Origin: an uncultured Cytophagales bacterium
GTDB lineage: Bacteria; Bacteroidota; Bacteroidia; Cytophagales; Thermonemataceae
Assembly: GCA_964654605.1 (NCBI GenBank)
Contig: CAZZLW010000081.1
Span: 2,939 to 66,938 of the forward strand
Length of the DNA: 64,000 nucleotides
Reading direction: 5' to 3'
Below, in pieces: positions 3,279 through 36,061 of this stretch. The position numbers and the translations under genes were made by a program. The notes beneath the pieces are model-generated. The model was not told the origin of the DNA. It ran no database searches and worked only from the letters and a program-made list of their open reading frames with translations. How positions within the stretch are numbered: position 1 is the first letter of the stretch; each line of letters begins with the position of its first letter.

Positions 3279-6080
3279 TTACAATTCCATTTTTAAGAAC
3301 TTACCCGTATAGCTTTGGGGGTGTGTAGCGAGTGCTTCGGGAGTGCCTTCGGCAATGATGTAGCCTCCTGCTTCACCTCCTTCCAATCCTAAATCTATGA
3401 TATGGTCGCAAACTTTGATAACATCAAGGTTATGTTCTATGATAAGCACGGTATTGCCTTTTTCTACCAATTTGTTGAGGAAAAAAAGCAGTTTTTCAAT
3501 GTCCTGAAAATGCAAACCTGTGGTAGGTTCGTCGAGAATGTAAAGGGTTTTGCCTGTATCTTTGCGGGAAAGCTCAGTGGCAAGTTTTACTCTTTGAGCC
3601 TCGCCTCCCGAAAGCGTAGTGGCGGGTTGCCCCAAAGTAATATAGCCCAAACCTACTTCGTGAATGGTTTTTATTTTAGAAAGAATACGAGGCTGATTTT
3701 CAAAAAAATCCAATGCTTGCTCTACGGTCATATCCAGCACATCTGCAATAGATTTTCCCTTGAAACGAACTTCCAAAGTTTCCCTGTTGTAGCGTTTGCC
3801 CTTGCAATCGCGGCAAGGGATATGCACATCGGGTAAAAATTCCATTTCAATTGTAACCACACCTGCTCCTTCGCAAGTTTCGCATCTTCCACCTTTTACG
3901 TTAAAAGAAAAACGCCCAGGTTTATAGCCTCTGATTTTGGCTTCGGGGAGCTGTGCAAATAAATCCCGAATATCTGTAAAAACTCCTGTATAAGTGGCGG
4001 TATTGCTTCGGGGGGTTCTGCCAATAGGCGATTGGTCAATTTCAATTACTTTATCCAAATGCTCTAAGCCTTCAATGCTCTCATAAGGCAAGGGTTCTTT
4101 TTTGGCGTTGTAAAAATGCTTGTTGAGAATAGGAAAGAGCGTATGATGAATAAGGGAGGATTTGCCTGAACCTGAAACACCTGTAACAGCAATCATTTTG
4201 CCCAAAGGTAAAGAAAGCGTAATATTTTTGAGATTATGCCCTTTGCAACCTTTCAGTACCAGAAATTTGCCATTACCTGCTCTTCTTGCTTGGGGAACTT
4301 CAATTTTGGCAATGCCTTTCAGATATTGAGCCGTTAGCGAGTTGGGGTTTTGCAAAAAGGTCTGGGGCGAGCCTTTGCCAACAATTGCTCCGCCGTGCCT
4401 TCCTGCTTCGGGACCAATATCTATGATGTAATCCGCTTGCAACATCATATCTTTGTCGTGTTCTACCACAATCACCGAATTGCCAATATCTCGTAAGTTT
4501 TGCAGAGATTGAATGAGCTTTTGGTTATCTCTTTGGTGTAAGCCGATACTGGGTTCATCAAGCACATACAAAACGCCTGTGAGTTGCGTGCCTATTTGCG
4601 TAGCCAAGCGTATGCGTTGCGATTCGCCGCCTGATAGGGTTTTTACGGCTCGGTTGAGCGTCAGATAGTCCAGACCTACATCAATCAGAAATTGCAATCT
4701 TTTGCGAATTTCTTTCAAAACCTCTTCGGCAATGCGTTTTTTTATGCCTTGCATACGACTTTCCAAGCCTTGTAGCCATTGAGCCAGCTCTGTAATGCTC
4801 ATAGCGGAAAGCTCGGCAATATTTTTATTATCAACTTTGAAGTACAAAGCCTCTTTTTTCAATCTTGTGCCATTACATTCGGGGCAGAGTTGGCTACTCA
4901 GATACTCGGCATAATGCTCTTGGACACTGCTTGAACTTTCGTTCATCATTTTTTGCATAAAAGGAATGATACCCTCAAAAGTAGTGTGCCAATCGGTACC
5001 AGGGTATTTGGTAGAGGCTACTTGAATGGTCTCTTTGCTTCCGTAAAGAATGATATCCAAGACTTCGCGAGGAATTTCGGCAACAGGTTTTTTAATAGAA
5101 ATTTTGTATTTTTTGAGTATGCTTTCAATTTTCTTAAAAATCCAAATGTCCCGAAATTCGCCCAGAGGGGCAATAGCCCCTTTTTCAATGCTGATATTTC
5201 TGTTGGGAATAATGCTATCTTCGGTAAAATTTTCAATAATGCCTAAACCTTCGCATTTGGGGCACCAGCCATAAGGCGAATTGAAGGAAAAGCTATTAGG
5301 GGCGGGTTCATCATAGCTGATACCCGAAGTAGGGCAAGTATAAAATTGGGAATAAAAACGCAGTTGCTCTTGCTCATCAATCACCAGAAGTGTGCCTTTA
5401 CCTTCTTTGAGAGCTTTTTGAATAGAATCGTTTAGACGAAAATCATCTTTTACTTGCAGGCGGTCAATAAGAACCTCAATATCGTGGATTTTGTAGCGGT
5501 CAAGTTCTAATTTGGGAGAAATTTCTTGAATTTTTCCATCAATACGGGCTTTCAGATAGCCTTTTTTGGCAATTTCGGAAAATAGCTCTTTGTAGTGCCC
5601 TTTTCTACCTTTTACCAAAGGAGCAAGAATAGAAATCTTTTGATTGGCATAGGTTTGCAAGATGCTTTCTCGGATTTGGTCGGGCGATTGTTGAATCATT
5701 TTTTCGCCTGTAACGTATGAGTATGCCTCACCTGCACGTGCAAAAAGCAATCGTAAGAAATCATAAATTTCGGTAAGCGTTCCTACCGTAGAGCGAGGGT
5801 TTTTGGAGGTCGTTTTTTGTTCAATGGCAATAACAGGGCTTAAACCTTCAATTTTATCAACATCAGGGCGTTGCATCTCGCCAATGAACCCCCTTGCATA
5901 CGCTGAAAAGCTTTCCATATAACGCCTTTGGGCTTCGGCAAAAATCGTATCAAAAACAAGCGAAGATTTTCCACTACCACTCACACCTGTTACTACTACT
6001 AACTTCTGACGAGGTATTGTAAGGTCTAAATTTTTCAAATTATGCTCACGAGCACCATAAATTTCTATTAGCTCTTCCAT
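3279..6080 (-). CDS. uvrA: excinuclease ABC subunit A
   Basis: 933 aa. Two ABC modules (GVSGSGKSS twice, LSGGE twice) and CxxC zinc-finger pairs. Confidence 0.95.
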   Translation of the reverse strand: MEELIEIYGAREHNLKNLDLTIPRQKLVVVTGVSGSGKSSLVFDTIFAEAQRRYMESFSAYARGFIGEMQRPDVDKIEGLSPVIAIEQKTTSKNPRSTVGTLTEIYDFLRLLFARAGEAYSYVTGEKMIQQSPDQIRESILQTYANQKISILAPLVKGRKGHYKELFSEIAKKGYLKARIDGKIQEISPKLELDRYKIHDIEVLIDRLQVKDDFRLNDSIQKALKEGKGTLLVIDEQEQLRFYSQFYTCPTSGISYDEPAPNSFSFNSPYGWCPKCEGLGIIENFTEDSIIPNRNISIEKGAIAPLGEFRDIWIFKKIESILKKYKISIKKPVAEIPREVLDIILYGSKETIQVASTKYPGTDWHTTFEGIIPFMQKMMNESSSSVQEHYAEYLSSQLCPECNGTRLKKEALYFKVDNKNIAELSAMSITELAQWLQGLESRMQGIKKRIAEEVLKEIRKRLQFLIDVGLDYLTLNRAVKTLSGGESQRIRLATQIGTQLTGVLYVLDEPSIGLHQRDNQKLIQSLQNLRDIGNSVIVVEHDKDMMLQADYIIDIGPEAGRHGGAIVGKGSPQTFLQNPNSLTAQYLKGIAKIEVPQARRAGNGKFLVLKGCKGHNLKNITLSLPLGKMIAVTGVSGSGKSSLIHHTLFPILNKHFYNAKKEPLPYESIEGLEHLDKVIEIDQSPIGRTPRSNTATYTGVFTDIRDLFAQLPEAKIRGYKPGRFSFNVKGGRCETCEGAGVVTIEMEFLPDVHIPCRDCKGKRYNRETLEVRFKGKSIADVLDMTVEQALDFFENQPRILSKIKTIHEVGLGYITLGQPATTLSGGEAQRVKLATELSRKDTGKTLYILDEPTTGLHFQDIEKLLFFLNKLVEKGNTVLIIEHNLDVIKVCDHIIDLGLEGGEAGGYIIAEGTPEALATHPQSYTGKFLKMEL

Positions 6081-6132
6081 AGCCGATTTTTTTCCAAAAC
6101 GCTAAATTAGGAAAAAAGTTTGAAGCGACAAG

Positions 6133-7854
6133 CTACTCTCTGGCATAGAAACGCAAAAACCAAATGTCTTTGTAAGGTTTCTGGCAAGCAGGAGGGGTTT
6201 CGGGAATTTCTTGTACTGCCACATCTGCTCTACAAGGGTTTGAGCGTAGCAATTCTTTTTTGCCATAATATTCCACCCAAAAGCGTACATAAAAAGCCTC
6301 TTCTGAAAGGTAAATATTCTGATTTTTATTCAGCATTGCTTTTACCTCATCAACTATCTTTTGATGATGCTGGTATGATTTGGGGTCGTAGAAATCTTGT
6401 ATTTCTCGCCAAAACTGAAAAAATGAACCCGCAAAAATAAGCACTGCCACCAAATAAAGTCCTGCTATTTTTATTTGGGGCAAAAAATGGCTCAATACCA
6501 TTGCTACTGCCCAGGCAAAGAAAATGGCATAGTATGTCCAGACACGATAAAACGGGAAAGCCTGCATCAGGCAAATAACCCCCAGCGTTACTGCCGTAGA
6601 AATTACCAAAAATTGCCAAATCTGCTGATGTGTGCGATTGAGCGTTTTTTTCCAAACAATCCAACTACCAAGCATACTTACTACTGCAAAAACTATGAAA
6701 GAAACGTATTTCGGTAAGCTCACAACATACCAAACAGATTCTCGCAAAGAAATGGGCAAAATGTAGCTAAAAAACCATTTGCTATCGTAATCTTTGGGTG
6801 CAACGTTTTCATTGCCTAAAAGGGCATTTTTGCCGCTATACGCTAGCACGCCTACATACGCTACATATACGCAAGCCGAAATCAGCAAACCTACCCAAGC
6901 AAAGCGATAAAGCAAACTGAAAGGTATCTTTTTTCGTAAAATTTGCCAAAGCAAAAAAGCATAAAACGAAAGCATTGCATACAAAAATACAGGCACAGCC
7001 CAAAATCCAAGCACACAAGCTAAGCCAAAAAGCCACAAATACAAAGAATGATAGTTTTGTAGATACATTAGCAAAGCAAAAAAGGCAATAAATATGCACA
7101 AAGCCTCAAACATATACGCCCTGCCTTGTACAGAAAAAACAGATTGGCTAAATCCCAAACCTGTGAGCAGAAGGGTTAGATAGGCTATCTGAAAGCCACT
7201 TTTACGCAAAAAAAATACAAAAACTACTGCAAGTAGTCCCCAAAAAGATAGGATAGAAGTTAAGCGTAAGGCAAGCATATTATCGGAGACGAAAAAGTGC
7301 CAAAAATAGGTTGTCAGGTTGTAGAAAAGGTGATTGTTTGGCACAGGATAATGCGTAAGCGTAACCGAAGCCCCTTGCGAAGCGAAAAATAACCAAGAAA
7401 AAGCCTCGTCCATAGCCAAAAATATGTTTTGGTACATAAAAACTTGGTGAACTGCAATGGCAAGCAAGGTAAAGACCAGCAACCATTTCTGATTTTTTGA
7501 AAGAGTGCTAAAATCTTGCTTAAAAAGCGTATAAATGCGGTTTAATTCTTTGATACCTTCCTGGAAATGTTTTTGTATAGTTTTTAGCAAAGCCCAAAAG
7601 ATGATTTGGAGTGCCAAAACTAAACAAAGGGCGATAGATAACCATATTTTAGCCTGCTCGTAGGTTTGAGGGCTGAAATGCTGTTTGGCAAAGAGATGAT
7701 GTCTGAAAATTCCTTGATGTTTCTGTAAATAAGTATTTAAAATTTCAGTGTAGCTGGTTTGCCAAAACCAAAGCCACTCTCTAAACAAATATACACTGAT
7801 AAAAATAGAAAAAAGGGCAAAAGCGACAATTTTTATGTTAAATAGTTGTTTCAT
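6133..7854 (-). CDS. polytopic membrane protein, possibly a GT-C fold (ArnT/PMT-like) glycosyltransferase
   Basis: About 570 aa with more than 10 predicted hydrophobic helices and a DEAF motif in an early loop. ATG at 7854 preferred over TTG at 7878. The functional call is weak. Confidence 0.5.
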   Translation of the reverse strand: MKQLFNIKIVAFALFSIFISVYLFREWLWFWQTSYTEILNTYLQKHQGIFRHHLFAKQHFSPQTYEQAKIWLSIALCLVLALQIIFWALLKTIQKHFQEGIKELNRIYTLFKQDFSTLSKNQKWLLVFTLLAIAVHQVFMYQNIFLAMDEAFSWLFFASQGASVTLTHYPVPNNHLFYNLTTYFWHFFVSDNMLALRLTSILSFWGLLAVVFVFFLRKSGFQIAYLTLLLTGLGFSQSVFSVQGRAYMFEALCIFIAFFALLMYLQNYHSLYLWLFGLACVLGFWAVPVFLYAMLSFYAFLLWQILRKKIPFSLLYRFAWVGLLISACVYVAYVGVLAYSGKNALLGNENVAPKDYDSKWFFSYILPISLRESVWYVVSLPKYVSFIVFAVVSMLGSWIVWKKTLNRTHQQIWQFLVISTAVTLGVICLMQAFPFYRVWTYYAIFFAWAVAMVLSHFLPQIKIAGLYLVAVLIFAGSFFQFWREIQDFYDPKSYQHHQKIVDEVKAMLNKNQNIYLSEEAFYVRFWVEYYGKKELLRSNPCRADVAVQEIPETPPACQKPYKDIWFLRFYARE

Positions 7855-26673: not shown

Positions 26674-28848
26674 TTAGAAAACTCCCTTAGAATTTAGAAT
26701 CTTATTTTCTTGCACCACTCGGATTTTGCCTTGGTCATTAAAATAAAAAGAAGTTTCTACTTCTGCTTGGTAGGGTTCTTGTCCGTTGTGTTGCCAGCCA
26801 AATACAAGAGGCACAATTGCCAAATCGCCATATACTTTTACTTGTAGGTGCTCTATTTGGGCAGAGTAATGGATATTTTTGCGGTCTTTGAAAAAATTTT
26901 GAAGATTTTTGATGATATGGTCGGGGCTATGGTCGTAGAGTTTGATGTACAAATGCACTGAATCGGCAAAAAGCAACTTCCAATTTTCCCAGTCTTGCAA
27001 GGCAAGATATTGGCAATAAAGCAAGATACTTTTCCGATAATGCTCAATTTTTGTCAGAATGGGGTTTTGCTTTTCTTCTACAACCAGTACAGGCTCAGCA
27101 AACTGAGTAATTTTCTGCGTACGTTTAGCCACATTCAAGCCTTCTTCAAAGAACCAGAGCATTGCTTGCTCCAATAGCCCTTCGGGAGTGGTTTGAGCAA
27201 GTTTGTCTTTGCCCTTCTGATATGCCTTCGAAAGGGTATTTTCATTTTTTCGGAGAATATTTCGTAGAGCCTCTTGAAAAGGCTTTAGTTCGTAACTCGT
27301 ACGTCTTTGGAAATTATCAATTTCCTTTTTGGCGTTTTTTTCTACTTGGGTAAATTCTTTTTGCTGATAATGCAATATACTCGCCATCAGTTTCAAATCT
27401 ACCCAATAATTGGGATACCTTTTGTCAAAATTGGGTTGTAGGCACAGTTGCTCAATGCTATCCAAACATTTTTTCTGATTTTCTTCATTGTTCTGATAAA
27501 TGCACAGCCGAAAATTGAGCAGGATATTGTTCAATTCAAAACGCCAAAGCAAGTTTGAAATATGTCTTTGTGAAAATATTTTCAAGTTTTCGCTGATTTG
27601 CTTTGCTCTATAATCTAAAATATCGGCTTCCGACCAATCGGGATTAGCTTTGCATTGCTCACTGATTTGGCGATGTTCTAACCCAAAAATCAAATTTTCT
27701 AAAAAATAGCCAAAACTTGTGTAAAGTAAATCTTCGTTGTACTGAAAAAAACGTTTTTCTTTACGGATAAGCTCTAAAATCCGCTGACTTTCTTCAAAAT
27801 CCGCTTTTTTAAGTGTATCAAAAAAATGTCTAATCAGTAGCGTAAGGCTAAACAAATGCCCAACCGGATTAGCTGTAAAACTATCATACTTTTCTTTGTA
27901 AATATCTATCAGGTCTTCAATCGCCTTGATACGCAGGCGAGCCTTTTCGTTTATCTGCAAAAAAATCAATAACAAATTGTAAAATGAAAAGCCGAAAAAG
28001 CCATCTTGGGAGCTATTTTTCCAGTATTCGTACTCAGTTTCTTCTTGAACTTGTTTCAGACGGGAATTTACAAACTCTTTGAAGCTACGATAAATATCTT
28101 CTTCGTAGGCTTCTTTTTGAAGCAGATTGAGCAAATCTTTACGTTTTTGTTGTAAAGTCTCATATTCCTTATCACCAATGCGTTCAAATTCTTGCTTGAT
28201 TTGCTTAAAGTAATGCTCTTCGGTTCGGACAAGGTCAATTTGAGGCTTTTTTTGATAAAAATAGATGCCTGTTTCAAAAAAATCCCTTAAAACGGATTTT
28301 AGCTGTTTGTAGTTGATAAGATGTGGGGTATGAACAATTTTGAAACTGGCAAGCCGCATTTCCAAATCACATACTTTGCCATATAGGTAAGCAATCTTAT
28401 TTTCTTGTACAAGTGCTTTAATTTGCTTAAAGAGCTTTTCAACCAACTGAAAAAGCCTCTCTTCTAAAAGAAACTCCGCTGTCCAGAGCATTTTAAGGGC
28501 TTTTTGGGCATTTAGTTCTTGTTGTAAATTTTCGGGGAGTTTTTCTATCTGTGCTTTGGGAATATGTTCTGTAAGTGAGAAAATACTTTCTTGTAGCTTT
28601 TCTAAAAGTGTTTCGGTGGTGTCATCAACCAAATCAGAAAAGTTTTTGGAAAAATCTTTTTGCTGACTAATTGCTTCAAAGGCTTCGTCAGCGGTTTGAT
28701 TTTGGTTTGTACTTTGGCGAATTTGCTCTAATAGTTTTTGTTGTTTGCTTGCCTTGCCATTGCTGAGTTCAGTCAAATTGCCAAGGATAGAGGCATAATT
28801 TTTTAGAAACTTGCACAAATCGAACAGATTTTCAAAGTTTTGTGTCAT
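26674..28848 (-). CDS. hypothetical 724-aa all-helical protein with a possible NTF2/SnoaL-like C-terminal domain
   Basis: Long uninterrupted ORF with no recognisable catalytic motif. The last ~110 aa (WENWKLLFADSV...YGDLAIV...) resemble an NTF2-like fold. Confidence 0.55.
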   Translation of the reverse strand: MTQNFENLFDLCKFLKNYASILGNLTELSNGKASKQQKLLEQIRQSTNQNQTADEAFEAISQQKDFSKNFSDLVDDTTETLLEKLQESIFSLTEHIPKAQIEKLPENLQQELNAQKALKMLWTAEFLLEERLFQLVEKLFKQIKALVQENKIAYLYGKVCDLEMRLASFKIVHTPHLINYKQLKSVLRDFFETGIYFYQKKPQIDLVRTEEHYFKQIKQEFERIGDKEYETLQQKRKDLLNLLQKEAYEEDIYRSFKEFVNSRLKQVQEETEYEYWKNSSQDGFFGFSFYNLLLIFLQINEKARLRIKAIEDLIDIYKEKYDSFTANPVGHLFSLTLLIRHFFDTLKKADFEESQRILELIRKEKRFFQYNEDLLYTSFGYFLENLIFGLEHRQISEQCKANPDWSEADILDYRAKQISENLKIFSQRHISNLLWRFELNNILLNFRLCIYQNNEENQKKCLDSIEQLCLQPNFDKRYPNYWVDLKLMASILHYQQKEFTQVEKNAKKEIDNFQRRTSYELKPFQEALRNILRKNENTLSKAYQKGKDKLAQTTPEGLLEQAMLWFFEEGLNVAKRTQKITQFAEPVLVVEEKQNPILTKIEHYRKSILLYCQYLALQDWENWKLLFADSVHLYIKLYDHSPDHIIKNLQNFFKDRKNIHYSAQIEHLQVKVYGDLAIVPLVFGWQHNGQEPYQAEVETSFYFNDQGKIRVVQENKILNSKGVF

Positions 28849-28973: not shown

Positions 28974-29306
28974 ATGCACCCTAAAATCAAAGAAAAAATC
29001 CAAAAGAAAATTTTGGAGAAAGCAGTTCAGCAAGATAAACGTTTTGCTGAAATTCTGCAAGGTAAATCAAAATTTTTTAGGAAGGATTTAGTAAAACTTG
29101 CTGATTTAATTGGCATAGACGAAAACACCATTTTACGATTTTATCACTACGGCTCTTGTAAGCCAACCCACCAACTCCAACCCCATAACGAGCAAGCCAT
29201 CGCCAGATTTTTGGGTTATCAAAGCTACGAAAAGTTATTAGAAATGCTAATGATAGAATTTGTCTTTGAACAAATCTGCTACCTGCTTGGGCAAATCAAC
29301 GCTTAA
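28974..29306 (+). CDS. small HTH-like protein, paralog family member P1
   Basis: 110 aa with an HTH-like segment LVKLADLIGIDENTILRFYHYG. Aligns with the 32558..32911 product over the C-terminal ~75 aa, including a shared FLG...LE..L..E....QI..LL.G pattern. Confidence 0.55.
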   Translation: MHPKIKEKIQKKILEKAVQQDKRFAEILQGKSKFFRKDLVKLADLIGIDENTILRFYHYGSCKPTHQLQPHNEQAIARFLGYQSYEKLLEMLMIEFVFEQICYLLGQINA

Positions 29307-29319
29307 CTAAATTTTCACT

Positions 29320-29661
29320 ATGGGCAAATATTTCATCAGAACCGAGCATTTCAGGCAAAGATGCCAAGAAAGGCAAGTGTCAGAAGTCATTGTAGAAATA
29401 ATCGAGCGTGAGCTTGCTTTAAATGTACATTTTCAACTTCACAAGCAATTTCAAGTAGAGGATAAAATCGTAGTTGTACCACCTTTTTATTGTGCTCATA
29501 ATCCGCACACACCCTATTTGGTAATTGTGAGAAAGGGAAAAGTTTTCGTAACCACCTACTGGGTTTGTGCTGAGAAATTCTTCAAAATCATTCAACAAGA
29601 ACCTCATTTCTACCTAAACCTTGATAATCCCTATGAAAAAAGCCCTTATTATATCGTTTGA
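29320..29661 (+). CDS. DUF4258-like small protein (RelE/ParE-fold toxin-like)
   Basis: 113 aa. N-terminal EHFRQRCQERQVSEVIVEII and later LVIVRKGKVFVTTYW resemble the DUF4258 pattern. Assignment is by motif only. Confidence 0.45.
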   Translation: MGKYFIRTEHFRQRCQERQVSEVIVEIIERELALNVHFQLHKQFQVEDKIVVVPPFYCAHNPHTPYLVIVRKGKVFVTTYWVCAEKFFKIIQQEPHFYLNLDNPYEKSPYYIV

Positions 29662-30886
29662 CCTCATCAGAGAAGGCGAACTGCCCAAGTCTTTGGCGGT
29701 AGCCTCTCTCTTGGCTTACTTGAAACAAGATATCCGCTACGGTAGCGAATTTGTAGCCGAAAACAGAAGCATAAATATGTGGTATTACCGAAACCTCATT
29801 TCCAATGAATTTTTATGGGATTTGGTGGAAGAATTGGATTTACATCGCTACGATACGCTTGCTCTTTCCTGCTACATTTGGAACGAATATTTCATCAAAG
29901 ATTTCTTGCAAATCATTCGCAGAAGTGGTTTTCAGGGTAAAATTGTTCTTGGGGGGTATCAGATTTCTTACACAAGCAAACCCGAACAACTTTTTGATGA
30001 ATATCCCGAAGCCGATATTTACATCAAAGGTTACGCCGAGAAAAGCCTTTTGGAAGCTATCCTGATGCCACGCCCCGCCGAAAAGAAAATCTTAAAAGGC
30101 GAAGTAGATTTCTCACTAATCCCATCAGTGTACTTAACAGGAGAGTTTCCTATTGAGCAAAATATGAAAATGATACGTTGGGAAACACAAAGAGGTTGTC
30201 CGTATGTATGCAGTTTTTGTGCTCACCGAGATTTGGAAAAAGGAAAAGTCTATAAACACGAATTGGATAAGATTTTTGCAGAACTAGCTTTTTTCAAGGG
30301 AAAAAATGTGCAAAAGGTCAATGCTTTAGACCCTATATTCAATGGTGGAAAAAATGCGGTACTGATTTTGGAAGAAATTGCCCGTTTGCAAATGAATACA
30401 CTTTTTTCTTTTCAAGTTCGCTTTGAAAACTTCAAAAATGTACTTGGTAAAAAGTTTTTGGATTTTGCTGAAAAAATCAACATCAATTTAGAATTTGGCT
30501 TGCAAACCGTAATAGAAAAAGAGTTTTACGCCATAGAACGCCCCAACAACTTATCTGTGGTTGAAAGCACCCTACAAGAACTAAACGAAAGAGACATTTC
30601 CTACGAAATCAGTATGATTTACGGCTTGCCACACCAAACCTTAGAGAGCTTTCAGTATGGTATTGATTGGCTTTTGCAAAAAAACGTAGAAAACATTGCC
30701 GCTTTCCCGCTGATGCTTCTAAAAGGCACAAAATTGTATGACCAAAAAGAAGAGTTTGGCTTTGTTGAAAAAGTATTGGGCGATTTCAATATCCCAACCG
30801 TAGTGAGCAGTAATACCTTCTCCGAAGATGAGTGGTGGGCAATGAAAGAAATAGCCAGCCAACTTAACCCCAAAGTTAGGTTCTAA
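29633..30886 (+). CDS. radical SAM protein with an N-terminal B12-binding-type domain
   Basis: CX3CX2C cluster motif (RGCPYVCSFCAH) preceded by a ~150-aa Rossmann-like domain (KKALIISFDL...LLAYLK...VLGGYQISY). No Cys-rich SPASM extension is present. ATG at 29633 overlaps the upstream gene by 29 nt. Confidence 0.85.
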   Translation: MKKALIISFDLIREGELPKSLAVASLLAYLKQDIRYGSEFVAENRSINMWYYRNLISNEFLWDLVEELDLHRYDTLALSCYIWNEYFIKDFLQIIRRSGFQGKIVLGGYQISYTSKPEQLFDEYPEADIYIKGYAEKSLLEAILMPRPAEKKILKGEVDFSLIPSVYLTGEFPIEQNMKMIRWETQRGCPYVCSFCAHRDLEKGKVYKHELDKIFAELAFFKGKNVQKVNALDPIFNGGKNAVLILEEIARLQMNTLFSFQVRFENFKNVLGKKFLDFAEKININLEFGLQTVIEKEFYAIERPNNLSVVESTLQELNERDISYEISMIYGLPHQTLESFQYGIDWLLQKNVENIAAFPLMLLKGTKLYDQKEEFGFVEKVLGDFNIPTVVSSNTFSEDEWWAMKEIASQLNPKVRF

Positions 30887-31084
30887 AATATACTCAACAA
30901 AGAAAGAATGAGTTGCGAAAATTCCGGCGAGCAAGCAAAAGTACCTTTCTCCTTTTGGGAAAAGGATTTAGGGATAGGGGCTTTTGCAAAGATTAGCCAA
31001 AGTGTGAATAAAAAAGTCTGAATACAGCTCAAAAACGCAGTTTTACCCTTCAAATGTTGATGTCTTTATTAGCCAAAAGCACTC

Positions 31085-31092
31085 TACCTTTG
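31085..31092 (+). promoter_or_regulatory. Bacteroidetes-type -7 box TAccTTTG
   Basis: Matches TAnnTTTG, 24 nt upstream of ATG 31116. Confidence 0.4.
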
Positions 31093-31115
31093 TAACAGAT
31101 AATAAGCAAAAGATT

Positions 31116-31733
31116 ATGCAAGCAAACGCCCCACTTAGAGGTCTTTATGAGCAAGGCTTTTTACACTTACCCAAACAAAATGAAAATACACTTCAAGAAA
31201 TACTTACTGCTTTGGGCGAGGTTATTCAGATTACTGATGTAACTCCCAAGCCTGATAGTAAAGGATTGGTTACTTCTACAAGAGGTTTGGACTTCCACAC
31301 AGACCACCACAAAGCCAAATTCATTGTTTGGTATTGCTACAAACAATGTAGTATTGGAGGAGAAAGCCTCTTGATAGATGCCGTTAAAATTTACCAAAAA
31401 CTTTGCCCTGCTTACCAAAGTGAATTGCAAAAAGTGGAACTTTTTGAGCATAAAGTATTTCCTGATGATTGCGAAAAATATCCTTTGGTAAGCGTAGATA
31501 GCAATGGAAATACAAGATTTTACTATTCTTTTTGGCTCGTAAGAGAGCAAGATAAACAAAATCCTGCTTTGAGGTCTTTTCAAGAGCTTATTCGGCAGGA
31601 AGAACCCATAAAACTCAAACTACAACCTAACGACATTTTGATAGTAGATAACCATCGTGTTTTTCACGCCCGAACGCCCATTGAAGGTAACCAAGACCGA
31701 TGGCTTAAACGATTTTGGCTTTCTGAAAAGTAA
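31116..31733 (+). CDS. TauD/TfdA-family Fe(II)/2-oxoglutarate dioxygenase (short, 205 aa)
   Basis: HxD facial-triad motif (LDFHTDHH) and a distal ILIVDNHRVFHARTP...R segment, as in TauD/TfdA enzymes. Confidence 0.78.
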   Translation: MQANAPLRGLYEQGFLHLPKQNENTLQEILTALGEVIQITDVTPKPDSKGLVTSTRGLDFHTDHHKAKFIVWYCYKQCSIGGESLLIDAVKIYQKLCPAYQSELQKVELFEHKVFPDDCEKYPLVSVDSNGNTRFYYSFWLVREQDKQNPALRSFQELIRQEEPIKLKLQPNDILIVDNHRVFHARTPIEGNQDRWLKRFWLSEK

Positions 31734-31772
31734 GCATAAAACCTTTTGTTCAACCTTAAAATTCCAAAATGT

Positions 31773-32309
31773 ATGGAAACCACTCTTTTAATTTACCCCG
31801 ACCCTATCAGTGTGGAGCGTATTTCCTACCTGATACACCAAAAAGGAATAGACCCTGCTATTGCCGCCCTTGACCTTGAAATGGTAAAAATGAAACTCCA
31901 AGAACCTGACGAAGGCGAAGGATGGACAGCCGAGCAGTGCGATATGGCTGAAATTGAATACAAACGCTATTTGCATCTTTGCAAAAAATACGGAAAAGGA
32001 ATGGTGCCCAACAAAATTATGGACATTTTCTGGCATTACCATATTTTAGACACAAGGGCTTATCACAAAGATTGTGAGGCAGTTTTCGGACACTACCTGC
32101 ACCATTTCCCTTACTTTGGTATGCGAGGCGAGCAAGATGCTCAAAATCTCAAAAATGCTTTCTACAAAACCAAAGAGCTTTATTTGGAAACTTTTGGTGA
32201 GAATATGCTAAGAGAGAGCTTGAATATTTTTGATGATGATGATGACGACGAGAGCGATTGCTGGCACGATTGCGAAAATAGATGTTGGCACGCTTGCTCT
32301 AATAAGTAA
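31773..32309 (+). CDS. GRDP-like (DUF1399) protein with a C-terminal Asp6-CWHDC-ENR-CWHAC tail
   Basis: MDIFWHYHILDTRAYHKDC...FGHYLHHFPYFGMRGE matches the GRDP-like signature. The tail is read directly from 32232..32306. ATG at 31773 preferred over TTG at 31746. Confidence 0.65.
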   Translation: METTLLIYPDPISVERISYLIHQKGIDPAIAALDLEMVKMKLQEPDEGEGWTAEQCDMAEIEYKRYLHLCKKYGKGMVPNKIMDIFWHYHILDTRAYHKDCEAVFGHYLHHFPYFGMRGEQDAQNLKNAFYKTKELYLETFGENMLRESLNIFDDDDDDESDCWHDCENRCWHACSNK

Positions 32310-32321
32310 AGATTAAAGACT

Positions 32322-32352
32322 GCTCCCGCTCTAAAAAAGAGAGGGAGCTTTA
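32322..32352 (+). terminator. hairpin after the GRDP-like gene (weak U-tract)
   Basis: GCTCCCGCTCT/AGAGAGGGAGC, an 11-bp stem with one mismatch and a 5-nt loop, followed by TTTA. Confidence 0.4.
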
Positions 32353-32420
32353 CTGCAAGGTATGAAGTAAAAAATCAAGCAAATATCCTCAAATTATCCA
32401 CCTAAAAACAACAAAAATTT

Positions 32421-32552
32421 ATGAAAAAACAATCCAATCATCAATCCGATATCAAGAACCCTAACAAAGGCACCAAAGGAACAAACATCACCTACGACAA
32501 AGCACAAGGCAATCGCGGCAAACAGCTCAACCCTAACCAAAAAAAGAAATAA
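32421..32552 (+). CDS. 43-aa Asn/Lys-rich hydrophilic peptide (below the ORF-track length cutoff)
   Basis: ATG 32421 to TAA 32550-32552, encoding MKKQSNHQSDIKNPNKGTKGTNITYDKAQGNRGKQLNPNQKKK. The stop lies 5 nt before the next ATG (32558). The NPN...NRGxQLNPN pattern recalls a widespread small-protein family; this comes from memory and was not searched. Confidence 0.4.
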   Translation: MKKQSNHQSDIKNPNKGTKGTNITYDKAQGNRGKQLNPNQKKK

Positions 32553-32557
32553 AACGT

Positions 32558-32911
32558 ATGCTAACAAGTGAACTTCTGCGTGAGGCATTTCTTGCAAAAA
32601 TTTTAGAAATAGCCTCTATCAAAGAACAAGAGCAAAAAATTGGCACAATGATTTTGCAAAAAGTTCCCTTTCAAAAATTAGAGTACAAGCATTGTCAGAA
32701 AATTGCAGAGCTAATGGATTGGGAAGCCAATAGTGTTGCCCGGCTTTTCGGAATAAATGATTCTTTTCCTGCCACCAAACTACTTTCTCCCAAGTCCGAA
32801 AAAAAGATTTTACAATTTCTTGGAGAGAAAAATATGAGGAATTTGGAAAGAAAACTCATTTTAGAAGTAGCCATTCAGCAAATTTTAGCCTTGCTACAAG
32901 GTTTGAAGTAA
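32558..32911 (+). CDS. small HTH-like protein, paralog family member P2
   Basis: 117 aa with an HTH-like segment CQKIAELMDWEANSVARLFGIN. Paralogous to the 28974..29306 product. Confidence 0.55.
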   Translation: MLTSELLREAFLAKILEIASIKEQEQKIGTMILQKVPFQKLEYKHCQKIAELMDWEANSVARLFGINDSFPATKLLSPKSEKKILQFLGEKNMRNLERKLILEVAIQQILALLQGLK

Positions 32912-32942
32912 ATTTTTCAAAACAGCTTTTTAGCTTTGCTAT
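32896..32942 (+). repeat. 47-nt duplicated segment, copy 1 (P2 3' end plus downstream)
   Basis: ACAAGGTTTGAAGTAAATTTTTCAAAACAGCTTTTTAGCTTTGCTAT, 44/47 identical to 33840..33886. Confidence 0.8.
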
Positions 32943-35188: not shown

Positions 35189-35226
35189 CGACATTATCGT
35201 TTTTGATGATAATGTCGCTTTTTTTA
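35189..35226 (+). terminator. rho-independent terminator closing the plus-strand accessory block
   Basis: CGACATTATC/GATAATGTCG 10-bp stem and a 9-nt loop, followed by CTTTTTTT. Confidence 0.7.
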
Positions 35227-35248: not shown

Positions 35249-36061
35249 TTGACCGAAATCATCACTTCTTTACAAAATCCGAAGATTAAGCAAATTTTGC
35301 GTTTGCAAGAAAAAGCCGCTGAACGCAAAAAGCAAAAGCTAACGCTTGTTGAAGGGAAAATAGAAATTGGAATAGCTATTAGTGCTTCGGTGGCTATTCA
35401 AAGCGTTTTTTATTTGCAAAGCAAAGAAAGTGAAGTAAAAAATTTCTTTGCAGGGAAATTACCCAAACATACGCAAACACATTTTTGGGCTGTTTCGGAA
35501 AATGTATTCACCAAAATTGCTTATCGTGAAAATAGCTTTGGAGCGGTTTGCGTGGTGCAAACACCTGAAAATACTCTGCAAAACCTTGCCTTATCTGAAA
35601 ATGCTTTGGTTTTGGTGCTGGAAAATGTAGAAAAACCGGGAAATTTGGGGGCTATTCTTCGTACAGCCGATGCGGCAGGAGTAGAGGCAATTTTTCTGTG
35701 CAATCCACAAACCGATTTATTCAATCCGAATGTAGTAAGGGCAAGTTTGGGCTGTATTTTTACCCAAAAAGTAATCACTTGCACCAATCAGGAAGCCTTT
35801 GATTTTTTAGCAAAAAGGAATTTTCAGTTGCTTGCTACGGCACTAACGGCTTCGGTGCCTTACACAAGTATTGACTACCGCCAGCCCACTGCTATCGTAA
35901 TGGGGACAGAAGCCACAGGGCTTACCCCTTTTTGGTTGGAAAAATCTCATCAAAACATCATTATTCCAATGCGAGGCAAAATTGACTCAATGAATGTATC
36001 CGTTTCGGCGGCGATAGTTGTTTTTGAGGCAATCAGGCAAAGAGAATTAGGAGTTGGCTAA
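35249..36061 (+). CDS. TrmH/SpoU-family RNA 2'-O-methyltransferase
   Basis: SpoU motifs LVLENVEKPGNLGAILRTADAAG and IPMRGKIDSMNVSVSAAI. TTG start. Confidence 0.8.
   Translation: MTEIITSLQNPKIKQILRLQEKAAERKKQKLTLVEGKIEIGIAISASVAIQSVFYLQSKESEVKNFFAGKLPKHTQTHFWAVSENVFTKIAYRENSFGAVCVVQTPENTLQNLALSENALVLVLENVEKPGNLGAILRTADAAGVEAIFLCNPQTDLFNPNVVRASLGCIFTQKVITCTNQEAFDFLAKRNFQLLATALTASVPYTSIDYRQPTAIVMGTEATGLTPFWLEKSHQNIIIPMRGKIDSMNVSVSAAIVVFEAIRQRELGVG

Follow-up and report, generated by a model that had tools for sequence, protein, structure and literature searches.

In a 64,000-nucleotide (nt) window, which is the whole stretch of DNA analysed here from an uncultured Cytophagales bacterium (contig CAZZLW010000081.1), a gene for a miniature TauD/TfdA-type oxygenase stands directly before a gene for an all-helical protein with a cysteine-rich C-terminal tail, hereafter the tail protein. 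Gene order across bacterial genomes points to these two genes as a widespread, conserved unit. The trio that they form with an adjacent radical SAM gene, proposed as a modification system in a preliminary description of the window, does not appear to be a system, and a plausible-looking call of a radical SAM RiPP trio (RiPP, ribosomally synthesized and post-translationally modified peptide) is thereby corrected. The three same-strand open reading frames (ORFs), their motifs and the tail on which that description was built are real and have the coordinates given here. We favour a reading in which the pair modifies the cysteine tail, with the helical domain as maturase and TauD as hydroxylase, and in which the radical SAM gene is merely juxtaposed; we assign it a probability of about 0.42. 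With moderate confidence, we class the pair as a variant form of ribosomal peptide or protein-tail modification. The pair comprises the following features:

31116..31733, plus strand: miniature TauD/TfdA-type Fe(II)/2-oxoglutarate oxygenase (Pfam, AlphaFold2 model, conservation)
31773..32309, plus strand: UCP032817-like (PF27765; distant GRDP/DUF1399) all-helical protein, the tail protein (Pfam, AlphaFold2, alignment)
32232..32255, plus strand: acidic linker DDDDDDES of the tail protein, lineage-specific and partly encoded by (GAT)5
32259..32297, plus strand: C-terminal twin CX3C tail C-W-H-D-C-E-N-R-C-W-H-A-C, residues 163-175 (conservation)

The TauD/tail-protein pair

The TauD ORF encodes 205 amino acids (aa) with the motifs HTDHH and VDNHRVFHAR and scores 73.2 bits against the Pfam TauD model (PF02668, cut-off 27). 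Its AlphaFold2 (AF2) model (pLDDT 90) matches the catalytic domains of TmpA and BBOX1 with a template modelling (TM) score of 0.78; the predicted protein consists of the catalytic double-stranded beta-helix only, and the N-terminal domain of TmpA and BBOX is absent. Over 50 homologs, H61, D63, H184, R186, R195 and R199 are invariant, with the HxD...H triad intact. Score, fold, facial triad and 2-oxoglutarate (2OG)-binding arginine are all those of the TauD family, and with an intact triad and a confident model the enzyme looks active. It is short and of the TauD/TfdA type, as had been noted before, but its length is typical of its relatives, since nearly all TauD homologs listed have 197-236 aa. 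The closest relatives by sequence and structure are TmpA, BBOX, AtsK, CarC, CAS and AsnO.

The tail protein has 178 aa from its ATG and ends in DDDDDDESDCWHDCENRCWHACSNK; its invariant motifs are WHxHILDT and HHFPYFGxRG. The earlier label "GRDP-like" is right only in the sense of a distant relation, which a fold match supports, and the protein is no member of PF07173: this model scores 17.3 bits against a cut-off of 22.7 and covers residues 67-109 only. The family PF27765.1 ("UCP032817-like") is the precomputed assignment, taken over here without re-scoring, of an identical protein (P0001) and of all 120 listed homologs. The AF2 model is all-helical (pLDDT 83, pTM 0.82). Its sole fold matches in Foldseek are giant-virus models named "glycine-rich domain-containing protein-like" (E 2e-4), and no relative was found in the PDB by fold (best Foldseek E 0.9) or by sequence profile. 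NCBIfam and PADLOC gave no match to the protein. Homologs are numerous, with more than 1,000 at 60-93% identity. The phage collection yielded a single match to the domain (LR756511.1:158889-159224, an uncultured 595-kb phage, 37% identity). Literature searches on DUF1399, PF07173, UCP032817, GRDP with RiPP, and pVip (prokaryotic viperin) with TauD led to plant GRDP papers or to nothing, and no structure or defence-database model covers the pair. The conflict-systems paper of Kaur et al. 2020 mentions neither TauD nor the helical domain.

Whether orthologs keep the tail was a question of the preliminary description, and they do: the tail is near-invariant over the 82 homologs aligned here. C163, W164, C167, C171 and C175 do not vary at all, H165, D166 and R170 are kept in at least 90%, and conservation of the tail equals that of the domain core. 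The motif is far from chance. We propose the twin CX3C tail as a modification or metal-binding site; the region is modelled by AF2 with low confidence. The acidic linker that precedes it is limited to the closest relatives and is absent from the 169-aa ortholog in a related metagenome-assembled genome (MAG; L165) and from all other clades.

To score synteny, the window genes were mapped onto 80 species-representative loci encoding relatives of the tail protein, the best-scoring 80 of 519. TauD adjoins or is fused to the tail-protein gene in 66 of these loci. In 63 it immediately precedes that gene in the same orientation, with gaps of 9-191 nt, and in three it is found downstream or on the opposite strand. 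The TauD-linked loci cover at least six phyla, from Bacteroidota, Verrucomicrobiota (Opitutae) and Gamma-/Alphaproteobacteria to Leptospirales, Myxococcota/Bradymonadales and Cyanobacteria; many of the gamma- and alphaproteobacterial loci are from sponge symbionts. Six loci in two lineages (L033/L040 and L036/L060/L068/L072) encode natural TauD::GRDP fusions of 390-447 aa in a single ORF, and fusions occur also among cluster representatives (P0241, P0243, P0244). In the window itself (31116-32309, plus strand), the TauD and GRDP-like ORFs lie in one frame, split by TAA-GCA-TAA and 11 codons, an arrangement that resembles the natural single-ORF fusions elsewhere.

The tail follows the presence of TauD closely. 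The form C-W-H-D-C-x-x-R-C-[WH]-[HN]-x-C is found in 65 of the 66 TauD-linked loci, with L061 reading CWHYC. Where TauD is missing (14 loci), the cysteine tail is a different one in 13, such as CKRACPSYCKRAC, CTRNCVSRCKRAC or CH[DT]CNGxCSxC; L016 keeps CWHDC without TauD, and here an ISL3 transposase stands at the TauD position. This association is suggestive and not a statistic, as a neighbour-joining tree of the domain alone implies few transitions. Because synteny is strict, fusion has occurred independently in two lineages and the tail tracks TauD, TauD and the tail protein most probably belong together.

Around the pair, clustering of the neighbouring ORFs of the 80 loci revealed no further conserved gene. 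About 280 neighbouring genes were scanned with Pfam and PADLOC, giving family counts that are descriptive; they are heterogeneous and include many housekeeping genes, for example PNTB, glutamine synthetase and isocitrate dehydrogenase. At two loci where TauD carries a helix-turn-helix (HTH) domain (L170:6001-10940, L172:492-5352), the pair is followed by bpMoxR AAA+ and vWA genes.

The radical SAM gene

Upstream of the pair, the window contains two overlapping genes that have to be considered together:

29320..29661, plus strand: orf113, small "c3-like" protein (hhalign, hidden Markov model)
29633..30886, plus strand: radical SAM gene of putative class-B (B12-domain-like) type, member of PDC-M51A (PADLOC, Pfam, ortholog contexts)

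The radical SAM ORF has 417 aa from its ATG and carries QRGCPYVCSFC, in which the CX3CX2C cluster motif reads C-PYV-C-SF-C (residues 192-199). With 35.2 bits against Radical_SAM (PF04055, cut-off 29.5) it belongs to the superfamily; the B12-binding model (PF02310) reaches 25.4 bits, under its cut-off of 32.1. The family calls of the preliminary description are supported; of the four Pfam families that it named, PF04055 and PF02668 lie above their cut-offs, PF02310 and PF07173 below. The best NCBIfam match is KedN5 (93 bits, cut-off 700). The nearest solved proteins are CysS (E 3e-20) and TokK, both cobalamin-dependent radical SAM methylases, and the window protein is about 230 aa shorter. It was described as lacking a SPASM-type extension and indeed does so, as Pfam and NCBIfam gave no match to SPASM, nor to a PqqD-like RiPP recognition element (RRE).

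PADLOC identifies the protein as PDC-M51A over its full length (E 1.6e-132; residues 2-413 onto positions 5-413 of the 420-position model). PDC families are untested phage defence candidates that were called by "guilt-by-embedding" in BREX, DISARM and type I restriction-modification loci (bioRxiv 10.1101/2024.01.29.577857). The usual neighbour of the radical SAM orthologs is an overlapping upstream gene for a protein like deoxynucleoside kinase (dNK) or thymidylate kinase, PDC-M51B; this dNK/thymidylate-kinase-like, VakA-like protein accompanies the radical SAM gene in L081, L167 and L168. Other neighbours are WYL regulators, an NYN nuclease, UvrD and DEAD helicases, type I and type ISP restriction-modification genes, a BrnT toxin and a restriction enzyme. 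In the window, no PDC-M51B-like kinase was found by tblastn with two B proteins, and the gene upstream is orf113. All seven orthologs outside Raineya (46-56% identity), which are situated in defence islands, have neither TauD nor the tail protein nearby.

The genomic distribution of the two parts of the supposed trio is therefore different, and the expectation of a syntenic trio holds for one part only: TauD and the tail protein stay together in 66 of 80 loci, but the radical SAM gene joins them only in the Raineya lineage and in L039. It adjoins the pair in Raineya orbicola (L001, 95% identical) and in the related MAG L165. In L039, a Flavipsychrobacter MAG, a 44%-identical radical SAM gene is found downstream of the pair, about 14 nt after the GRDP-like stop. 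Of the 66 TauD-linked loci, 64 lack the gene. On the favoured reading, the TauD/tail-protein module does not require it, and these contexts mark it as a probable separate candidate anti-phage gene that lies inside the module only in the Raineya lineage. Radical SAM enzymes beside an oxygenase and a Cys-rich segment had been taken for a hallmark of RiPP pathways; this does not apply here, as the enzyme is PDC-M51A, is not conserved with the pair and has neither SPASM nor RRE.

The place of the radical SAM gene is indicated by orf113, the last 29 nt of which overlap the start of the radical SAM gene. The product of orf113 is homologous to the ~100-aa proteins beside pairs in other Bacteroidota (hhalign probability 92.7%, E 4.4e-7), where such orf113-like proteins follow or precede the TauD pair, and it has the N-terminal motif F-x-T-x-H-F-x-x-R-x-x-E-R-x-V/I-S. 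Among the ~10,800 ORFs from all fetched loci, a hidden Markov model (HMM) of the family matched only beside TauD-GRDP pairs, never at radical-SAM-only loci. Judged by this company, orf113 belongs with the TauD/GRDP-like module and not with the radical SAM gene. As its family keeps to the pairs, the radical SAM gene appears to lie inside an orf113-TauD-tail-protein module in the Raineya lineage. The window comes from a Raineya relative, and most cluster genes share 85-95% protein identity with R. orbicola, orf113 61%.

Relatives of the helical domain and the proposed function

A profile search of 1.84 billion cluster representatives (E<=1e-3) recovered 8,680 relatives of the helical domain. The ~130-aa domain retains WHxHILDT and HHFPYFGxRG, and the region downstream of it is hypervariable and mostly Cys-rich, with at least two cysteines in 112 of 138 tails. 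In a sister clade from soil metagenomes (L085-L164), this region consists of 3-19 tandem A-[FYWML]-C-x-x-A units with a terminal RPxL motif. The soil-clade tails end in ...LNTS-x-RP-x-L, and the copy number of the repeats differs between close relatives; repeat tails are seen for example in L095:8050-9009, L104:3626-4681, L090:658-1473 and L178:3992-4606 (Cupriavidus pinatubonensis plasmid p2). At 53 of 80 soil-clade loci, the adjacent gene comes from one large sensor cluster. Three of four sensors scanned have the architecture CHASE-PAS-GAF-GGDEF-EAL or CHASE-PAS-histidine kinase, and the fourth has a Cache domain. CHASE domains bind small ligands.

On plasmids, the cysteine peptide can be separate from the domain. 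In L173:4709-6700 (P. savastanoi pPsv48C, NC_019292.2) and L174:4719-6700 (a Halomonas plasmid), a short ORF of 42-45 aa ends in GGGGHCQGGGGW or GGGHCQGGGSW (consensus GGGHCQGGG[GS]W); after it come the gene for a tail-less domain and, overlapping this, one for a polytopic membrane protein of 442 aa. The Halomonas split cluster adjoins LuxI and LuxR genes. On a plasmid of Stanieria PCC 7437 (L175:3926-5449), the tail-less domain is followed by a 43-aa ORF, which has two A-x-F-C-F-L units (AAFCFL...AGFCFL) and an RPS motif, and by a methyltransferase. On an Azospirillum ramasamyi plasmid (L176:3941-5960), the gene for a Cys-tailed domain precedes genes for a SAM methyltransferase and for a TauD enzyme; the helical family is thus linked with TauD a second time, now with a full-length instead of a miniature enzyme. 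Three genes for S9 peptidases adjoin the domain gene at two loci (L079:389-1926 and 4811-6517; L080:9902-11532). In these loci, from a Patescibacteria-labelled and an unclassified MAG, CxxxxCxxCxxxxC tails ending in RP[IV]F are convergent with the S9 prolyl-oligopeptidase-family genes, which suggests cleavage after the conserved proline.

Cysteine peptides that are fused, repeated or split off have the apparent architecture of ribosomal peptide maturation. Across the family, architecture and gene neighbours are those expected of RiPP precursors; the TauD clade departs from this in having an invariant instead of a variable core and no conserved protease or exporter. Because relatives have a fused or split cysteine peptide, the tail is likelier a substrate than a mere cofactor site. 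The preliminary idea of the tail as substrate has gained support from these separate and repeated peptides, but its variant with a nearby small ORF as substrate has not, as the small ORFs lack conserved cysteine.

From the synteny, fusions, motif conservation, family memberships and contexts described here we infer every biochemical step of the following model. The helical domain would be a maturase for Cys-centred peptides, and its invariant His, Asp and Glu motifs make a dependence on metal probable. In the TauD clade, the peptide would be fused to the domain and modified in cis; in other clades it would be a tandem-repeat tail or the product of a separate small ORF. TauD might serve as a tailoring hydroxylase on the invariant Trp-His-Asp stretch of the tail. 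Since no protease or exporter is conserved with the TauD clade, a modified protein end with, for instance, a metal-binding or redox function would be a likelier product than a secreted peptide. If this holds, the pair represents a maturase family that modifies Cys-rich peptides or protein termini with the aid of a minimal TauD hydroxylase; it would then also supply a biochemical hypothesis for the large UCP032817/GRDP superfamily, to which the plant GRDP proteins, known only by phenotype, belong. The natural TauD::GRDP fusions are ready-made enzyme-substrate material, and P. savastanoi pPsv48C, Cupriavidus pinatubonensis, Stanieria PCC 7437 and Raineya orbicola are cultured entry points.

A broader view, which is tentative and on the doubtful side, extends the model to the whole UCP032817-like (GRDP-like) domain as an unrecognised peptide-maturase family of more than 8,000 clusters with fused, repeated or separate Cys-centred cores. 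Its products would be signals or metallophores, read in soil bacteria by the adjacent CHASE-domain c-di-GMP or histidine-kinase sensors, and the hydroxylated twin CX3C Cys-Trp-His-Asp tail of the TauD clade would be a protein-derived metal or redox cofactor. If true, this would be a new RiPP-like class with a new fold and the first biochemical handle on GRDP/DUF1399 proteins of plants and giant viruses.

Several points weigh against tail modification by the pair. As the best-scoring of 519, the 80 loci favour relatives of the query, ORFs in the fetched loci were called crudely and taxonomic labels of MAGs can be wrong. The link between tail and TauD may reflect one or two evolutionary transitions and not an independent correlation, and a stretch of 13 residues with four cysteines and two histidines could be no more than a metal site. 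Moreover, small molecules are the substrates of all the closest sequence and structural relatives of TauD, fusion would be just as expected if the two enzymes served a single small-molecule pathway, and a protease or exporter conserved with the pair is not seen in the TauD clade. These last three points speak at the same time for a two-enzyme small-molecule pathway, which we regard as unlikely. Here TauD would hydroxylate a metabolite (quaternary-amine-like or nucleobase-like), the His/Asp-rich helical protein would carry out the next step in the manner of TmpA/TmpB or PhnY*/PhnZ, and the cysteine tail would be a metal-binding, Fe-S or redox-regulatory appendage instead of a substrate. The invariant His, Asp and Glu motifs of the helical domain are typical of a metal active site, and the partner of the domain in the soil clade is a CHASE sensor, a type whose ligands are small. 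However, neither HD-domain proteins nor other known metalloenzymes match the helical domain in fold. The C-terminal region of the domain protein is hypervariable, repeated or split off across the family, unlike a cofactor-binding appendage, and the non-cysteine residues W, H, D and R of the tail are conserved too, as described above.

A further observation that counts against the favoured reading is that an antiviral-type radical SAM gene is present in the operon of the pair in four lineages; hence, the verdict of a separate gene may be functionally too strong. This is also the starting point for a quite unlikely alternative that is compatible with tail modification, namely that the TauD/UCP032817-like module and the orf113-like proteins form a conflict or defence-associated system, or assist antiviral radical SAM enzymes that modify nucleotides, with the Raineya set as a functional team. 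In the four lineages, the radical SAM gene lies beside the pair in the same direction: PDC-M51A in the window, L001 and L165 and again in L039, an intact pVip immediately before the pair in L007:2709-5274, and a split pVip (87 aa + 204 aa) upstream in L050:8486-10519, its stop overlapping the TauD start. The presence of pVip and PDC-M51A beside the pair looks non-random, both being rare, although the counts are descriptive only. WYL regulators are found just upstream in L050 and L059, an XRE-type HTH is fused to the TauD N-terminus (345-348 aa; P0484, P0499), and bpMoxR and vWA genes, components of "ternary conflict systems", occur in L036, L068 and L170-172. The regulators near the pair are of types common in conflict systems and further include pairs of a LytS-type kinase and a LytTR regulator, and AbiEii, AbiU, restriction-modification genes, reverse transcriptases and PIN domains are found nearby. 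The embedding of defence genes in defence systems is documented (bioRxiv 10.1101/2024.01.29.577857). Yet TauD, the GRDP-like protein and orf113 match no PADLOC model, most neighbours of the pair are the mixed and often housekeeping genes listed above, and none of the seven radical SAM contexts outside Raineya includes the pair. We keep the defence-associated module as a rival or complement of tail modification; the repeated embedding of PDC-M51A and prokaryotic viperins in the operon of the pair is a lead to antiviral nucleotide chemistry. Very improbable is the original idea of a single RiPP-type pathway of radical SAM enzyme, TauD and GRDP-like protein, in which both enzymes modify the tail or the product of a nearby small ORF. 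It would account for the adjacency of the three genes on one strand in the window, L001 and L165 and for the radical SAM gene right after the GRDP-like gene in L039, and the tail, like QhpC-type substrates of radical SAM enzymes, has many Cys, Trp and Asp residues. But nearly all TauD-linked loci lack the radical SAM gene, the usual partner of PDC-M51A is the nucleotide-kinase-like protein, and SPASM and RRE are missing. In addition, a gap of 230 nt with a promoter-like motif separates the radical SAM gene from TauD, and the intergenic small ORFs hold no conserved cysteine peptide.

Compared with known systems, the pair shows partial similarities to several. The nearest precedent for the trio is the QhpC/QhpD/QhpG system, in which the Cys/Trp/Asp-rich gamma-subunit of quinohemoprotein amine dehydrogenase is matured by the SPASM radical SAM enzyme QhpD and the flavoprotein QhpG to give cross-links and a Trp-derived quinone. 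Unlike QhpD, the window radical SAM enzyme is without SPASM and is not conserved with the pair, and no dehydrogenase subunits are encoded nearby. CinX and DurX are 2OG oxygenases that carry out Asp beta-hydroxylation in cinnamycin and duramycin. The pair likewise consists of a 2OG oxygenase beside a ribosomal Cys-rich peptide with an invariant Asp, whose hydroxylation is proposed. By contrast, and on a comparison by description, the "peptide" of the pair is the C-terminus of a conserved 160-aa domain and its TauD is nearest to TmpA/BBOX; unlike in cinnamycin and duramycin, no lanthionine synthetase, protease or exporter accompanies it. BURP-domain plant peptide cyclases fuse the enzyme to core peptides. 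Both families have a His-rich domain fused to variable, often repeated short motifs centred on an aromatic residue, and stand-alone forms exist in both; the helical family differs in being all-helical without a PDB match, in its Cys-centred motifs, and in being bacterial with distant GRDP relatives in plants and giant viruses.

TmpA/TmpB and PhnY*/PhnZ are two-step oxidative pathways that also combine a TauD hydroxylase, here nearest to TmpA, with an all-helical His/Asp-rich partner. The helical partner of the pair differs by its Cys tail and has no sequence or fold match to an HD domain, and the miniature TauD lacks the N-terminal domain; HD-domain homology of the helical protein was rejected, as there is no fold match. 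With PDC-M51 the window shares a full-length PDC-M51A radical SAM enzyme, a family that, like pVips, pairs with nucleotide-kinase-like genes in defence islands. In contrast to PDC-M51, the kinase partner is missing in the window, and in contrast to pVip, the radical SAM enzyme is class-B-like and related to CysS/TokK. Plant GRDP1 and GRDP2 (DUF1399, PF07173) have the distant domain and a low-complexity C-terminal region in common with the tail protein, which differs by its twin CX3C instead of a Gly-rich tail and by a Pfam score below the gathering threshold; the plant literature is phenotypic only.

Small neighbouring genes and a promoter-type motif

Further features of the cluster lie at its borders and in its gaps:

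28974..29306, plus strand: orf110, small protein and paralog of orf117 (HTH-like by eye only)
31085..31092, plus strand: TACCTTTG, match to the promoter-type motif TAnnTTTG (consensus match only)
32421..32552, plus strand: orf43, Asn/Lys/Gln-rich, Cys-free hydrophilic peptide MKKQSNHQSDIKNPNKGTKGTNITYDKAQGNRGKQLNPNQKKK (conservation)
32558..32911, plus strand: orf117, paralog of orf110, which closes the cluster (paralogy)

The paralogs orf110 and orf117 flank the cluster. Outside the Raineya lineage (window, L001, L165), their HMM has matches in L016 alone, and every match lies close to the GRDP-like gene; L016 has two copies of this type there. Pfam, NCBIfam and PADLOC gave no match. Directly upstream and divergent (26674-28848, minus strand), the window encodes a 724-aa protein that is found also in Raineya orbicola (86%) and L165 and has no Pfam, NCBIfam or PADLOC match. 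Small intergenic ORFs were considered as peptide precursors and rejected, as the gaps 30886-31116 and 32309-32558 are without a conserved Cys-rich ORF. The peptide of orf43 was rejected as a Cys-peptide precursor as well: it is conserved, but Cys-free. It is kept just downstream of the GRDP-like gene in L001 and L165 and has a counterpart of 74% identity in a Chitinophagaceae MAG (L038:5312-5437).

A scan for sigma-70 promoters and terminators was uninformative for the window organism. The motif TAnnTTTG, which we take to be the -7 promoter element of Bacteroidota, has 142 matches in the window against 92 +/- 10 expected, an excess that fits promoters of the Bacteroidota type. Between the radical SAM gene and TauD, the match TACCTTTG precedes the TauD start by 24 nt, which suggests that TauD and the GRDP-like gene might form a transcription unit of their own. 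Elsewhere in the window, TAnnTTTG often stands 20-45 nt before gene starts, as at 32931 (a DUF4870 gene) and at 35225 (the gene at 35249).

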